Positions 18,700 to 22,235 of a DNA stretch of 64,000 bases are shown in pieces. Made by a program: the position numbers and the translations under genes. Numbering within the stretch: position 1 is the stretch's first letter; each line of letters opens with the position of its first letter. Source of the stretch: Escherichia phage W22; sequence record PV159336; one strand, written 5' to 3'. The notes under the pieces are model-generated. The model was not told the DNA's origin. It did not search any database and saw nothing but the letters and a program-made list of their open reading frames with translations.

Positions 18700-18966
18700 A
18701 TGACAGAACGTACTTATGGTAAAGAACTGATTGAGAAGCACGTATTGATTGATAATAAAGGTGGAGCAATCTTTATTTTTGAACCTGAATCAGTTCTTAC
18801 TGAAAACGAAAATGGTAGCGTTAGCCTTAAAACAGAAAGTTTGGTAATTGACTTCCTTGCTCTTCTGGATGAAATGGGGCTTCCTCACGAAGAAGAAGCA
18901 GCTATTGCTTTGATTACAGTTCTTCTGGAGAAACGCGAAGCTGGTGAAATGACCCAGTATGCTTAA
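18700..18966 (+). CDS. hypothetical acidic protein (88 aa)
   Basis: ORF track; GGAG RBS. Confidence 0.45.
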   Translation: MTERTYGKELIEKHVLIDNKGGAIFIFEPESVLTENENGSVSLKTESLVIDFLALLDEMGLPHEEEAAIALITVLLEKREAGEMTQYA

Positions 18967-18973
18967 TATTCAA

Positions 18974-19049
18974 GGTTCCATAGCTCACTGACGAGAGCGC
19001 ACACCTCATAAGTGTCGAGGGCAGGGATTGTAACCCTGGGGAACCACCA
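18974..19049 (+). tRNA. tRNA, anticodon CAT (Met or Ile2), atypical T-loop
   Basis: Manual fold: acceptor GGTTCC/GGAACC, anticodon loop CTCATAA, CCA encoded. Confidence 0.45.
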
Positions 19050-19080
19050 TTTAAAAGGAGGTGCTATGCATCTCCTATAT

Positions 19081-19166
19081 GCAAGTGTGGTGGAATTGGT
19101 GATACACATTGTGCTTAAAACGCAACGCTTAAATGCTTGAGGGTTCGAATCCCTCCACTTGCACCA
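19081..19166 (+). tRNA. tRNA-Leu (anticodon TAA)
   Basis: Manual fold: acceptor GCAAGTG/CACTTGC, loop CTTAAAA, long variable arm, T-loop GGTTCGAATCC, CCA. Confidence 0.6.
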
Positions 19167-19168
19167 AC

Positions 19169-19273
19169 GCCTAGTAGGGTATTTGGTAATTCCGAGGCCA
19201 TCAAAGCCTGAAAAATATGTTAGACCGCTTTGTCTAACTAAATACGAAATATGGTTCGATTCCATAACTAGGC
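19169..19273 (+). ncRNA. atypical tRNA-like element (about 105 nt; possible UCA anticodon; no CCA)
   Basis: Perfect 7-bp acceptor GCCTAGT/ACTAGGC, T-arm TATGG-TTCGATT-CCATA, anticodon-like hairpin with loop CATCAAA, 7-bp extra arm GTTAGAC/GTCTAAC. Confidence 0.3.
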
Positions 19274-19306
19274 TTCAATTTAAATAATAATTTTAGTAAA
19301 AATATC

Positions 19307-19335
19307 TTGACATTCACTTAGTTTTTTGTTATAGT
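19307..19335 (+). promoter_or_regulatory. sigma70-like promoter (TTGACA, 17 nt, TGt-TATAGT)
   Basis: Near-consensus promoter inside the tRNA cluster. Confidence 0.5.
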
Positions 19336-19345
19336 TACTGTGAAA

Positions 19346-19427
19346 ACGGGGTGTATCTCACCTGACTTCTAATCAGGCGTTAACCGAGTAATTGGAGTAT
19401 GCAGGTTCGAATCCTGTCACCCCGACC
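19346..19427 (+). ncRNA. atypical tRNA-like element (anticodon-like loop CTTCTAA, no recognisable D-arm)
   Basis: Perfect acceptor CGGGGTG/CACCCCG plus ACCA, T-arm GCAGG-TTCGAAT-CCTGT, hairpin CCTGA-CTTCTAA-TCAGG only 7 nt after the acceptor. Confidence 0.35.
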
Positions 19428-19446
19428 AAAAAGTTTTTAAAAACTA

Positions 19447-19475
19447 CTTGACAAGCAAGATAGTTTTATGTTAGA
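19447..19475 (+). promoter_or_regulatory. sigma70-like promoter (TTGACA, 17 nt, TGt-TAGATT)
   Basis: Sequence match inside the tRNA cluster. Confidence 0.45.
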
Positions 19476-19491
19476 TTTAAAGTATGATAAC

Positions 19492-19581
19492 GGGAAGGTA
19501 GGGCGCAGCGGTGCGCAACCAGGTTTGAACCCTGGCCCATTGTAGCGATACGGTGATGGTTCGACTCCATTATCTTCCTCC
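19492..19581 (+). tRNA. tRNA-Ser (anticodon TGA)
   Basis: Manual fold: acceptor GGAAGGT/ATCTTCC, stem CCAGG/CCTGG with loop TTTGAAC, long variable arm, CCA. Confidence 0.55.
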
Positions 19582-19600
19582 AAATTCAACTAGGAGCTTT

Positions 19601-19753
19601 ATGAATTATAAAACTATTGGACAGGTTGTTACCGGAGTTAAGATTGTAGATAATAAAGTTGTTTATGAGTATTCTAATCTTCAACAATCTGAAGATGGTA
19701 AGAATATTCGTATGGTAAAAGCAGAACAAAAAGATTCCGGTTGTTTTGAATAA
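19601..19753 (+). CDS. small hypothetical protein (50 aa)
   Basis: ORF track 19553..19753 overlaps tRNA-Ser; internal ATG after AGGAG RBS chosen. Confidence 0.35.
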   Translation: MNYKTIGQVVTGVKIVDNKVVYEYSNLQQSEDGKNIRMVKAEQKDSGCFE

Positions 19754-19761
19754 TTAAGAAC

Positions 19762-19847
19762 GGTAGATTGGTGAAATGGTAGCCACAACAGTTTGCTAAA
19801 CTGTCGTCGGAAACGGCGTGTAGGTTCAAGTCCTACATCTACCGCCA
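19762..19847 (+). tRNA. tRNA-Ser (anticodon GCT)
   Basis: Manual fold: acceptor GGTAGAT/ATCTACC, stem ACAGT/ACTGT loop TTGCTAA, long variable arm, discriminator G, CCA. Confidence 0.6.
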
Positions 19848-19974
19848 AGTTATCTTTAATGTAGCTTGTAATCTTACTTTAATAGAGTAAACTTTCGGCA
19901 GATGGCCCCCCACCATCTTACCGATATCCCATAGTCAAGTGCCGCAAACACTGGCTATTTTAAAGATAATTTAT

Positions 19975-20050
19975 ACATCGTTAGCTTAGTTGGTAGAGCA
20001 AGGGGCTTTTAACTCCAAGGTCGAAGGTTCGAATCCTTCACGATGTACCA
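19975..20050 (+). tRNA. tRNA-Lys (anticodon TTT)
   Basis: Manual fold: acceptor ACATCGT/ACGATGT, D-arm GCTTAGTTGGTAGAGC, loop CTTTTAA, T-loop GGTTCGAATCC, CCA. Confidence 0.6.
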
Positions 20051-20055
20051 AACAC

Positions 20056-20142
20056 GTAGGTATCGCATAGCGGCAATTGCTGGAGACTGTAAATCTCTTG
20101 CCCTTCGGGGCTTCGTTGGTTCGAGTCCAACTACCTGCACCA
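20056..20142 (+). tRNA. tRNA-Tyr (anticodon GTA)
   Basis: Manual fold: acceptor GTAGGTA/TACCTGC, stem GGAGA/TCTCT loop CTGTAAA, long variable arm, CCA. Confidence 0.6.
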
Positions 20143-20149
20143 AATTAAA

Positions 20150-20234
20150 GATGGATTGGCCTAGTGGTTGGGCGACGGACTGTTAATCCGTGAACGAAAG
20201 TTCTAGCAAGGTTCAAATCCTTGATCCATCGCCA
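20150..20234 (+). tRNA. tRNA with Asn anticodon GTT on a class-II (long variable arm) scaffold
   Basis: Manual fold: acceptor GATGGAT/ATCCATC, stem ACGGA/TCCGT loop CTGTTAA, 15-nt variable arm GAAC-GAAA-GTTC, discriminator G, CCA. Confidence 0.45.
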
Positions 20235-20241
20235 GAATTAT

Positions 20242-20318
20242 GGACTTGTAGAGTTAAGGTAAACCTCCAGTCGCCAAGAGGCTTCTGGAATTGCAGGTAT
20301 CGAATCCTGCCGAGTCCA
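20242..20318 (+). ncRNA. atypical tRNA-like element (anticodon unresolved, 8-nt T-loop, no CCA)
   Basis: 7-bp acceptor GGACTTG/CGAGTCC and T-arm GCAGG-TATCGAAT-CCTGC; no clean anticodon arm found. Confidence 0.3.
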
Positions 20319-20324
20319 AGTATT

Positions 20325-20399
20325 GCTCCTATCGTATAACGGCTATTACGGTTGCCTTGTAAGCAACTTATCAGGGTTCGAGTCCTTGTGGGAGCACCA
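20325..20399 (+). tRNA. tRNA-Thr (anticodon TGT)
   Basis: Manual fold: acceptor GCTCCTA/TGGGAGC, stem GTTGC/GCAAC loop CTTGTAA, CCA. Confidence 0.6.
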
Positions 20400-20416
20400 A
20401 TTTTAACTCTAAAGGA

Positions 20417-20746
20417 GTGTATGTGACAGAAAAAGAGTTAGAGAAATATTTTAATATCAATGTTTTCGATGGTTTTGATGATATTGAAGATGTTGAAAGA
20501 TATTATGAAGTAGAGTTAGATAAGGATAACATTGTAATTCTTTCTGCCACTTATGATTGTGCATATTATGAAGGTGAATCTCACGTTTATTTTTATGATA
20601 TGAAAACATCTTTGTTTTATGAAGTACACGCATATCATTGTTCTTGTTATGGCTTAGAAGGTCAGTGGGAACCTGAAGAAATAGGTGATTTGGACTTTAC
20701 TATTGCATATCTAAACAGACGTGGTGCATCTACTATTTTAAAATAA
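20417..20746 (+). CDS. hypothetical Cys/His-containing protein inside the tRNA cluster
   Basis: ORF track (109 aa); GTG start region after AAGGAG RBS; motif HAYHCSCYG. Confidence 0.45.
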   Translation: MYVTEKELEKYFNINVFDGFDDIEDVERYYEVELDKDNIVILSATYDCAYYEGESHVYFYDMKTSLFYEVHAYHCSCYGLEGQWEPEEIGDLDFTIAYLNRRGASTILK

Positions 20747-20760
20747 ATATCAAAAGCCTC

Positions 20761-20789
20761 TTGACAAAGGGGCTAATAATATGTTAGAG
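20761..20789 (+). promoter_or_regulatory. sigma70-like promoter (TTGACA, 17 nt, TGt-TAGAGT)
   Basis: Sequence match upstream of tRNA-Gly. Confidence 0.45.
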
Positions 20790-20801
20790 TAATATTGTTA
20801 A

Positions 20802-20876
20802 GCGGGTATAGTGTTAATGGTAGCATATGAGGTTTCCACCCTCCAGGTGCAGGTTCAAGTCCTGTTACTCGCTCCA
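20802..20876 (+). tRNA. tRNA-Gly (anticodon TCC)
   Basis: Manual fold: acceptor GCGGGTA/TACTCGC, loop TTTCCAC, T-loop GGTTCAAGTCC, CCA. Confidence 0.55.
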
Positions 20877-20975
20877 AGATTATTTAAATGGAATCGCTAG
20901 AGAAAATTTCTCTTTTCGCTCATGGTTTTCTCCTTCAAACTCTAGCGGTTCTTTTTAAGTGATTTTTAGTTTTAT

Positions 20976-21050
20976 TGGAGATTAGCCTAGTGGGAAGGCA
21001 ACGGCCTTTGAAGTCGTGATGACTAGGTTCGATTCCTAGATCTCCAGCCA
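20976..21050 (+). tRNA. tRNA-Gln (anticodon TTG)
   Basis: Manual fold: acceptor TGGAGAT/ATCTCCA, stem ACGGC/GTCGT loop CTTTGAA, T-loop GGTTCGATTCC, CCA. Confidence 0.55.
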
Positions 21051-21057
21051 GTATTTA

Positions 21058-21133
21058 CAGTGCGTAGCGCAGTTGGTAGCGTGGGAGCTTTGGATGCTTC
21101 GGGTCGCAGGTTCGAGTCCTGCCGCACTGACCA
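21058..21133 (+). tRNA. tRNA-Pro (anticodon TGG)
   Basis: Manual fold: acceptor CAGTGCG/CGCACTG, D-arm GCGCAGTTGGTAGCG, loop TTTGGAT, T-loop GGTTCGAGTCC, CCA. Confidence 0.55.
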
Positions 21134-21138
21134 AATTT

Positions 21139-21213
21139 GCAGAGATAGCTGAGACGGATTAGTGCTACCCTGAAAAGGTAGAAAGGATGGATCGTTACCA
21201 TCTCTCTGCACCA
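21139..21213 (+). tRNA. tRNA-Phe (anticodon GAA), atypical T-loop
   Basis: Manual fold: acceptor GCAGAGA/TCTCTGC, stem CTACC/GGTAG loop CTGAAAA, CCA. Confidence 0.5.
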
Positions 21214-21289
21214 AATAACACCATCCAAGGAGTAGACTTGGTTAACTGTCAATAGCACATTGAGGCTTCTTACAGTGGTGTATTTTTAT

Positions 21290-21374
21290 GGCTAAGTGGT
21301 GGAATGGTATACACGATACGCTTAGAACGTATTGCCCCAAGGGATTGTGAGTTCGAGTCTCACCTTAGCTACCA
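21290..21374 (+). tRNA. tRNA-Leu (anticodon TAG)
   Basis: Manual fold: acceptor GGCTAAG/CTTAGCT, stem ATACG/CGTAT loop CTTAGAA, long variable arm, CCA. Confidence 0.6.
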
Positions 21375-21462
21375 TATCTAAGAGATATCATAGGGTTTGC
21401 AACGGATATCTACCGTCCTGTTAAGGATACCACGCCAAGACGGGTTATAAAGGGTTAGCCAT

Positions 21463-21538
21463 TGATAGTGTGAAGCTGGCGTTTCGAGTGCTTTCATAAG
21501 GCATTGCGAGAAGAGTTCGATTCTCTTACTATCAACCA
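21463..21538 (+). tRNA. tRNA, anticodon CAT (Met, fMet or Ile2)
   Basis: Manual fold, 76 nt: acceptor TGATAGT/ACTATCA, loop TTCATAA, T-arm AAGAG-TTCGATT-CTCTT, CCA. Confidence 0.55.
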
Positions 21539-21553
21539 AATTACTACAGATTG

Positions 21554-21632
21554 CGCGGGATAGAGGAGTCTGGTCGTCCTCGCCAGTTTCATATGCTGGA
21601 GATCGTAGGTTCAAATCCTACTCCCGCCTCCA
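21554..21632 (+). tRNA. tRNA, anticodon CAT (Met, fMet or Ile2)
   Basis: Manual fold: D-stem GAGG/CCTC, stem CCAGT/GCTGG loop TTCATAT, T-loop GGTTCAAATCC, CCA; one acceptor mismatch. Confidence 0.45.
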
Positions 21633-21697
21633 ATAAATACCTCCCTTCTGGTGTAATGATTAAGTTACATTGACACTTCAAGGAACTTATAGCCGGG

Positions 21698-21773
21698 TAG
21701 ATTTAAAAGAGTATGGTACTCAATATGGCTCCAAACCATAGATCAAGGGGTTCGATTCCTCACCTTGCTGCCA
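21698..21773 (+). ncRNA. tRNA-Trp-like element (anticodon-like loop CTCCAAA) with unpaired acceptor
   Basis: Perfect stem TATGG/CCATA with loop CTCCAAA, T-arm with TTCGATT loop, 3' CCA; no complementary 5' acceptor strand found. Confidence 0.3.
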
Positions 21774-21778
21774 ATTAT

Positions 21779-21854
21779 TGTGGTATCGTACAGATGGTTA
21801 GTACACTCGACCGATAATCGAGAAACAACGGTTCGACTCCGTTTACCACGACCA
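21779..21854 (+). tRNA. tRNA-Ile (anticodon GAT)
   Basis: Manual fold: acceptor TGTGGTA/TACCACG, D-arm GTACAGATGGTTAGTAC, stem CTCGA/TCGAG loop CCGATAA, T-loop GGTTCGACTCC, CCA. Confidence 0.55.
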
Positions 21855-21965
21855 AACTCCGTGCCAGCGGTGTCTTCGAAGAACAAGCCTAGTTCCTTCT
21901 GAGATGGAGGGGTGCGACTCCTTAACGCACATACCACTACTACTAAATACTTATCAGGAGATATT

Positions 21966-22235
21966 ATGTATACTTTAAAAGTAATTCGCAAGTTTCCTCA
22001 AGAAGAGGAAGTAAGAATTTATAACACTGTACCATTCGTAGTAAATGAAGAAGAATTCTTTTATTGCTTAGAAGATGAAGTAATTATTCAATATCATTGG
22101 GAAGGTTACGACAGACAAGATGGTGTTGTAGCTTCTGTGATTGCTGGTGAAAGAGTGTTATTCATTCACAAAACTGAATCAGCATATTTAATGAATGATA
22201 AAGGACAAACTGTTAAAGTAATTAACAGACCATAA
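21966..22235 (+). CDS. hypothetical protein (89 aa)
   Basis: ORF track 21912..22235 trimmed to the ATG after CAGGAG RBS; followed by an intrinsic terminator. Confidence 0.45.
   Translation: MYTLKVIRKFPQEEEVRIYNTVPFVVNEEEFFYCLEDEVIIQYHWEGYDRQDGVVASVIAGERVLFIHKTESAYLMNDKGQTVKVINRP

Follow-up and report, generated by a model that had tools for sequence, protein, structure and literature searches.

The genome of Escherichia phage W22 (PV159336), a phi92-like E. coli myophage (Stephanstirmvirinae, Justusliebigvirus), carries an array of tRNA genes at positions 18974-21854 of the 64,000-nucleotide stretch analysed here, to which we refer as the window. In this array, ARAGORN identified 16 canonical tRNAs, none of them for Arg. 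The region from 18900 to 22000 is 99% identical to sequences of phages EC.P2, ECGD1 and PHB05. Within the array, on the plus strand, lies a tRNA-type element of 82 nt with the Arg anticodon UCU (19347-19428), which was left uncalled in the ARAGORN run on the window. We propose, with a probability of roughly 0.68, that this element is a functional tRNA-Arg(UCU) of non-canonical form, whose core is a three-way junction and which has a promoter of its own.

The outer parts of the element are those of an ordinary tRNA. The 5' strand of the acceptor stem, CGGGGUG (19347-19353), pairs perfectly over 7 bp with the 3' strand CACCCCG (19418-19424), which is followed by a discriminator A and an encoded CCA (19425-19428). 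The T-arm, GCAGG-UUCGAAU-CCUGU (19401-19417), combines a 5-bp stem with a 7-nt UUCRANY loop. The anticodon arm, CCUGA-CUUCUAA-UCAGG (19361-19377), is a perfect hairpin, with the UCU anticodon at 19368-19370 and with U33, A37 and A38. A 7-bp acceptor stem, a discriminator, CCA, a T-arm and an anticodon arm with U33 and a purine at 37 are thus all found, as expected of a tRNA. An earlier note on this DNA, made from the sequence alone, had described the perfect acceptor stem followed by ACCA, the canonical T-arm and the perfect Arg anticodon hairpin beginning 7 nt past the acceptor stem, all of which are present as it said. It had placed the element at 19346-19427, which designates the right element with a position off by one base.

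The departure from the ordinary layout is in what links these parts. The gap between the acceptor stem and the anticodon stem consists of 7 nt only (TATCTCA), namely the junction UAU (19354-19356), whose first two bases resemble U8 and A9 and are invariant in both alignments described below, and CUC followed by A (19357-19360). Conversely, 23 nt (19378-19400) separate the anticodon arm from the T-stem. They comprise CGUUAACC (19378-19385), the trinucleotide GAG (19386-19388) and a D-loop-like connector, UAAUUGGAGUAU (19389-19400), which continues directly into the T-stem. With the Rfam tRNA model RF00005, whose gathering threshold is 29 bits, the element obtains 40.0 bits (E = 5.7e-5 for the whole window), and the match is therefore far beyond chance. 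In the RF00005 alignment, 15 D-arm positions of the model are reduced to 4 nt, 20 nt are inserted before the T-arm, and no local D stem-loop is found between positions 9 and 26, the acceptor and anticodon stems being only 7 nt apart. According to the earlier note, a canonical cloverleaf detected by a covariance model in a different acceptor register would have refuted its observation. None was found with the Rfam tRNA model or by ARAGORN, and this possibility is thus ruled out. Other Rfam families gave matches at chance level only in the region.

The element is immediately preceded, on the same strand, by a sigma-70-type promoter (19307-19335) in which TTGACA (19307-19312) and TATAGT (19330-19335) are 17 nt apart, with the TG of an extended -10 box. 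This near-consensus promoter, also noticed earlier, conforms to the consensus at 11 of 12 positions and is the top match within 18700-22100. Transcription is predicted to start approximately 4-6 nt upstream of the 5' end of the tRNA. Two further TTGACA-type promoters on the plus strand (19448-19477 and 20761-20790), each with 10 of 12 consensus positions and a TG, immediately precede the tRNA-Ser(UGA) and tRNA-Gly(UCC) genes, respectively. Several strong internal promoters thus appear to drive transcription of the array.

The earlier note had regarded the element as lacking a D-arm and the stretch of about 23 nt as unpaired. The length is correct and there is indeed no local D hairpin. However, the parts of a D-arm exist, joined in another order, and the GAG within the 23-nt stretch pairs with the CUC at 19357-19359, around the anticodon arm, as judged by covariation. 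In alignment A2, which groups 35 distinct close homologues, the triplet that follows the invariant UAU changes jointly with the triplet that precedes UAAUUGG. The helix combinations observed include CUC:GAG, CGC:GCG, CAC:GUG, CUU:AAG, CAUC:GAUG and CGGU:ACCG. In A2, pair 11:42 is C:G in 35/35 sequences, pair 12:41 is UA in 25, GC in 8 and AU in 2 of them, and pair 13:40 is CG in 31, UA in 3 and GC in 1, with no sequence unpaired at any of the three. In the acceptor, anticodon and T helices, 96-99.6% of the cells are paired in the same alignment, and compensatory changes are found at 13 of the 17 pairs. These include all seven pairs of the acceptor stem (99.6% of cells paired) and all five of the anticodon stem. 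On this comparative evidence, all helices are under selection.

Conservation in A2 also covers the functional positions. U33, C35, U36, A37, GGUUC and A58 do not vary, and most homologues have A or G at position 73. In the connector, T43, A44, A45, T47 and G48-T54 (alignment numbering) are invariant, position 46 alone being variable, and the D-loop-like motif UAAUUGGA within the 23-nt stretch is nearly invariant. The CGUUAA part of CGUUAACC is near-invariant in the UCU subfamily, and the equivalent segment is A-rich and 4-7 nt long in the wider class.

More distant members were collected using a pattern in which the D-loop motif lies 5-12 nt before GGTTCGA, a spacing impossible in a canonical tRNA. 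This wider scan yielded at least 120 viral stretches, among which R1, a covariance model built with the long-range helix, picked 51 further members corresponding to 48 distinct sequences (alignment A3). In A3, the first long-range pair is CG in 32, UA in 7, AU in 5 and GC in 3 sequences; the second is GC in 21, CG in 16, AU in 7 and UA in 4; and the third is CG in 20, GC in 13, AU in 2 and UG in 1. The three pairs thus run through the whole set of Watson-Crick types, or nearly so. The R1 score of the window element is 103 bits, those of full-length members range from 87 to 103 bits, and two divergent variants reach 53 and 60 bits. The best score of the canonical tRNAs in the loci searched is 41.7 bits, so that R1 sets the family clearly apart from them.

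These features are consistent with a rewired core, in which the acceptor stem and T-arm would be canonical and a three-way junction would replace the four-way cloverleaf. The CUC:GAG helix (3-4 bp) would extend the anticodon stem in the place of the D-stem, with the anticodon arm nested within it. In a canonical tRNA, the strand made of positions 22-25, 26 and 27-31 is continuous, and its partners are 39-43, 44 and then 10-13. Here, CUC-A would occupy the 3' strand of the canonical D-stem (23-25) and position 26, stacked on the anticodon stem. The continuous strand would be CUC-A-CCUGA, and its partner strand would consist of UCAGG and GAG, made covalently continuous by the bulge CGUUAAC(C), which separates the anticodon stem from the long-range helix on the 3' side. 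GAG would correspond to the 5' strand of the D-stem and provide a G10-like base. The D-stem and the anticodon stem would thus form a single long hairpin, the bulge of 7-8 nt closing the point at which the strands normally meet at the junction. The connector, U-A-A-U-U-G-G-A-G-U-A-U, would fit the D-loop order A14 R15 Y16 Y17 G18 G19 A20 ... A21, and a U48 would come after the D-loop-like nucleotides and lead straight into G49 of the T-stem. The U and the A that follow the acceptor stem could act as U8 and A9. The partners of the core contacts U8-A14, R15-Y48, G18-psi55, G19-C56 and T54-A58 are all present and invariant. Relative to a normal tRNA, the segment comprising the D 5' strand and D-loop and that comprising the D 3' strand and anticodon arm would be swapped in order. 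The stacked D/anticodon limb and the elbow contacts between GG and the T-loop could nevertheless still form. We infer this numbering and the three-dimensional equivalence by analogy with canonical tRNAs.

BLAST searches with the element retrieved 258 GenBank phage records. The block made of promoter and element is 94-99% identical across 55 records of phi92-like phages. The 82-nt element alone is found with 80-87% identity in unrelated phages, including Felix O1 and other Felixounavirus, Sugarland and Roth37 (~110-kb Klebsiella phages), Asteriusvirus jumbo phages (PBECO4), the Kuravirus TH42, ManiMatter (Bas94) and Vequintavirinae (Mydo). It is also found in Pectobacterium phage POP12, which is T4-like, as well as in a Vibrio phage, in Streptomyces phages and in T5-like phages. 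Pattern scans of IMG/VR added dozens of further copies. The element is absent from the 5,426 complete E. coli genomes searched, and on that basis we rejected an origin in the host and the existence of prophage copies. Among the matches listed by a 16-mer scan of 185,579 species genomes, most were unrelated coding sequences and one was a true copy, located on a metagenome-assembled contig of gammaproteobacterial origin; further copies in bacteria are possible. No protein gene emerged as a conserved neighbour, HNH endonuclease genes being found 3' of the element in Felix O1 and Roth37 only.

Public records mostly carry no annotation for the element, and a few label it as tRNA-Undet, tRNA-OTHER or a tRNA with no isotype. 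Protein-coding calls overlap it in Felix O1, in which it coincides with the start of an HNH endonuclease gene (L003:454-846), and in Mydo (L009:451-540) and Vibrio phage 424E50-1 (L008:378-497), in which short hypothetical proteins are annotated. These calls are probably annotation errors.

This distribution bears on whether the element might be a mere relic, i.e. a decaying tRNA-Arg pseudogene that has lost its function by deletion of the D-arm and insertion in the variable region. Degenerate tRNA-like remnants do occur in phage arrays, and several odd ones are present in the window. Nevertheless, Felix O1-like, T5-like, T4-like, jumbo, Kuravirus, Vibrio and Streptomyces phages all retain the same 82-nt layout, with 80-87% identity, compensatory changes are found in all four helices, functional positions are invariant, and the element has its own promoter. 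We thus find the pseudogene explanation scarcely credible.

If the element is a functional tRNA-Arg(UCU), it would be processed by RNase P, charged by the arginyl-tRNA synthetase (ArgRS) of the host and used to read AGA (and AGG) codons. The identity set of E. coli ArgRS comprises A20, C35, U36/G36 and A/G73. C35 and U36 are among the invariant positions, and position 73 is an A in the window element. The A that follows the invariant GG (UUGGA) is also invariant in A2, its likeness to A20 being one of sequence order only. Among the 88 members, the anticodons are UCU (68), ACG (8), CCU (5), UCG (3), GAU (3) and CAU (1), i.e. 84/88 correspond to Arg, and CCA is encoded in 42 of the 83 distinct members. 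In the ORFs of the window, AGA represents 28% of the Arg codons and 11 per 1000 codons. Its level in E. coli is approximately 2 per 1000, several times lower, and this AT-rich phage resorts to AGA (and AGG) about five-fold more than E. coli does.

The other tRNAs encoded with the members give a similar picture. Felix O1 has 25 canonical tRNAs, with an Arg(ACG) and no Arg(UCU). Locus L072 encodes canonical Arg tRNAs with GCG, UCG and CCU anticodons together with the rewired UCU, and in L024 and L078, with 23 and 26 canonical tRNAs, respectively, the sole canonical Arg tRNA has an ACG anticodon. A canonical tRNA of the same anticodon is present in the locus for 2 of the 88 members, and for one of the 19 that belong to tRNA-rich loci. 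The members fill an anticodon slot that is empty in otherwise near-complete phage tRNA sets. The window copy is most likely a working AGA decoder.

Alternatively, the element could be a non-translating mimic, in which the Arg anticodon loop and the acceptor/T limb would be kept only for binding to a target protein. It might thus act as a decoy or an inhibitor of a host tRNA-targeting nuclease or modification enzyme, or as a regulator. Phage tRNAs are known to counter tRNA-cleaving defences (PMC10264068, PMC11555353), and retron Eco2 cleaves host tRNA-Arg among others (PMC12916289). The strong promoter of the element recalls the promoter-driven overexpression of tRNA-Tyr described in PMC11555353, and the odd core might prevent ordinary use in translation. 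Against a mimic, the changes of anticodon are nearly all between synonymous Arg anticodons, with few Ile or Met, and the anticodons hardly ever recur on a canonical tRNA of the array concerned. Synonymous variation and non-duplication thus fit a decoding tRNA rather than a decoy. Moreover, the covariation of the acceptor stem, A/G73 and the encoded CCA point to a 3' end that can be charged, and the high AGA use represents a plain translational need. We therefore consider a non-translating mimic unlikely. A nuclease-resistant tRNA that still decodes would suit both views.

On a more speculative note, the unusual wiring might be beneficial in itself. It could, for example, protect the RNA from those host nucleases or modification enzymes that recognise the D-arm or the variable region, or change how flexible the RNA is during decoding. 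For the family at large, the odds appear to us to be even that it represents a widespread class of translationally active, rewired phage tRNAs, mostly for Arg with a few for Ile or Met, which would work with ordinary bacterial synthetases, EF-Tu and ribosomes. In such a class, the rewiring may be kept to remove strands that host nucleases or modification enzymes read, or to change the decoding hinge.

Several points weigh against the proposal of a rewired, functional tRNA-Arg(UCU). The calculated energies of the window sequence are -21.2 kcal/mol with the long-range helix, -22.5 kcal/mol without it and -26.1 kcal/mol for a fold with a local hairpin. The long-range helix consists of 3 bp closing a 1 x 8 internal loop, an arrangement unfavoured by nearest-neighbour energies, and its fourth pair (14:39) is A.C in most members, with 29 sequences of A2 unpaired. 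RNAalifold on the family returned the three standard helices only, with no long-range helix. As neither the energies nor RNAalifold support the 3-bp helix, it is deduced from covariation alone. Regarding the wider set, it was gathered with a pattern that fixes TAATTGGA, and the conservation of TAATTGGA in that set is therefore circular. As for function, the loci in which empty slots were noted are partial genome stretches, and a canonical tRNA could lie elsewhere in the same genome. The expression, processing and aminoacylation of the element are predictions, and its acceptance by the host ArgRS, EF-Tu, the ribosome and the t6A and mnm5U enzymes is hypothetical. Lastly, A3 was fitted to model R1, and the pairing was therefore retested using sequence anchors alone. 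This check, which partly offsets the latter concern, found fully complementary triplets in 65 of the 83 distinct members, with at least 14 different helix sequences, and 0 of 2000 shuffles gave a count as high.

The energies and the RNAalifold result raise the possibility that the tRNA truly lacks a D-arm, as in the earlier note, and that the 23-nt stretch is either unstructured or folded into a local CCGA/UUGG hairpin similar to a long variable arm. Energy minimisation of the window sequence indeed gives the local-hairpin fold, and the 23-nt stretch is unpaired in the RNAalifold structure. Nevertheless, the local hairpin has no compensatory changes and is unpaired in 8-15 of the 35 sequences at three of its four pairs, and its UUGG half is invariant while the supposed partner varies. 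In contrast, double changes preserve the long-range pairs in A2, in A3 and in the anchor-based check. We thus rejected the local hairpin, and a truly D-armless tRNA appears very unlikely.

The element has much in common with canonical tRNA-Arg(UCU), such as E. coli argU and its phage T4 counterpart. The shared features are the 7-bp acceptor stem with A/G73 and CCA, the GUUCGAAUC loop on a 5-bp T-stem, the anticodon loop CUUCUAA on a 5-bp stem, the D-loop-type motif UAAUUGGA with an A after GG, the location in a phage tRNA array and a presumed role in AGA supply. Unlike in the canonical tRNA, the D-stem strands of the element would flank the anticodon arm, with no local D hairpin, and its D-loop would be fused to the T-stem at the usual site of the variable loop, resulting in a three-way junction.

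Other unusual tRNAs offer partial parallels. Like the D-armless tRNA-Ser(AGY) of metazoan mitochondria (GCU/UCU), the element has no local D hairpin, a three-way layout and an AGN-type anticodon. In those mitochondrial tRNAs, however, no D-stem pairing exists and a short replacement loop links the acceptor and anticodon stems, whereas the element has a covarying helix and a connector on the 3' side. Furthermore, the elbow contacts between G18G19 and the T-loop are usually lost in the mitochondrial forms, which need adapted factors, whereas the elbow nucleotides of the element are invariant. Unlike the mitochondrial forms, it would need the ordinary bacterial machinery. In the permuted and split tRNA genes of Cyanidioschyzon merolae and of archaea (for the latter, PMC3218864), the 3' half comes first or is located elsewhere, and processing restores the cloverleaf. 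As in these genes, tRNA segments are in a non-standard order in the element, but its acceptor strands are in the normal order. As its transcript already satisfies all pairings, it can do without a splicing motif, and the rewiring would persist in the mature RNA. Finally, the allo-tRNAs and the (8/4) and (9/3) tRNAs of bacteria and phages, discovered by sequence mining, have altered acceptor and T lengths and keep a local D-arm (Mukai et al., PMC5389517). The element shares with allo-tRNAs a non-canonical architecture, and some of them are also found in phage tRNA clusters. Its acceptor/T lengths are the usual 7/5, and the change concerns the D/anticodon limb. No published description of the architecture or the motif was found in the full-text literature available without subscription, which was searched for D-armless, non-canonical or unusual tRNAs of phages and for the motif, and a prior account is thus possible.

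To our knowledge, cloverleaf connectivity of the cytoplasmic type is held to be near-universal, the known exceptions being reduced mitochondrial tRNAs with co-adapted factors. In the proposed fold, the same parts of the L-shape appear to be restrung, in tRNAs dependent on unmodified bacterial machinery and in phages as well studied as Felix O1 and the phi92 group. If the element is charged and decodes, it would show the extent to which tRNA recognition follows shape and not strand topology, and it would provide a natural scaffold for tRNA engineering. It would also reveal a gap in tRNA gene finding, phage tRNA-Arg(UCU) having been missed, labelled 'undetermined' or hidden under spurious protein-coding calls. 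Lastly, it would provide a connection, open to testing, with the conflict in which phage tRNAs oppose the tRNA-cleaving defences of the host.

A number of additional observations were made on the members found in viral contigs. The rewired architecture is found with the Arg anticodons ACG, UCG and CCU and, in rare cases, with GAU and CAU (Ile or Met), for instance in L228:6435-6514, L232:5340-5418, L225:10605-10684 and L302:4321-4400. Some contigs carry two rewired tRNAs each (L044, L220, L234, L245, L297 and L302), and a CCU member lies beside a diverged UCU member on one contig. In six members with no encoded CCA (L010:385-490, L012:390-495, L024:3690-3795, L230:2625-2730, L028 and L037), the 5' leader and the 3' trailer pair over 6-10 bp, which lengthens the acceptor stem. 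This helix may be a precursor-processing structure or represent the ends of a mobile unit.

Regarding the rest of the W22 array, it contains small ORFs on the plus strand (19601-19753 and ~20423-20746) that correspond to Phi92_gp111 and gp112 in related records. In the related phage PATM, insertions of HNH endonuclease genes separate tRNAs elsewhere in the array. Three tRNAs of the array have a CAU anticodon (18974-19049, 21463-21538 and 21554-21632, plus strand). An initiator tRNA and a lysidine-modified tRNA-Ile may be among them, by analogy with other genomes.

The earlier note had proposed that two further elements of the array, at 20242-20318 and 21698-21773, show a similar partial architecture. 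This does not hold, as both keep a local D-type hairpin, neither is among the listed matches of the family model in the window, and both are limited to close relatives. We thus excluded them, the second with its boundaries set at 21692-21773, from the rewired class. The 20242-20318 element (plus strand) has a good acceptor stem, GGACUUG/CGAGUCC, a D-type hairpin of the form GAG...CUC and a fold z-score of -4.0. Its anticodon loop, GCCAAGA, is aberrant, its T-loop consists of 8 nt (UAUCGAAU), and it is found with 94-99% identity in phi92-like and phAPEC8-like phages only. The 21692-21773 element (plus strand) scores 22.9 bits with the Rfam tRNA model, i.e. below threshold. It has an anticodon hairpin, UAUGG-CUCCAAA-CCAUA (CCA, Trp). 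Nine extra nt precede its D hairpin, and its acceptor stem contains one C.U mismatch. Its relatives are found in Klebsiella phage FKP3 (81%) and in Hafnia phages (75-76%).

A third tRNA-like element, also uncalled by ARAGORN, is located at 19170-19275 (plus strand). It has an acceptor stem, GCCUAGU/ACUAGGC, a T-arm, UAUGG-UUCGAUU-CCAUA, and a long extra hairpin, GUUAGAC-CGCUUU-GUCUAAC, which resembles a class II variable arm. Its weak anticodon hairpin, AGGC-CAUCAAA-GCCU, has possibly a UCA anticodon, with A in place of U33. This element is present in 33 phage records, and its copy in Erwinia phage Hena1 (70% identical) is annotated as 'tRNA-TERM'. It may be a tRNA of the UGA-suppressor type. 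The last spacer of the array (21855-21950, plus strand) contains a T-arm-like sequence, GGAGGGGUGCGACUCC, and an ACCA-like end, with no convincing fold (z ~0). Finally, on the viral contig L072, which also bears a rewired tRNA-Arg(UCU), ARAGORN identified a tmRNA with the tag ANSMNASAFALAA (L072:6424-6703). The rewired tRNA of that contig matches that of Streptomyces phage BoomerJR.

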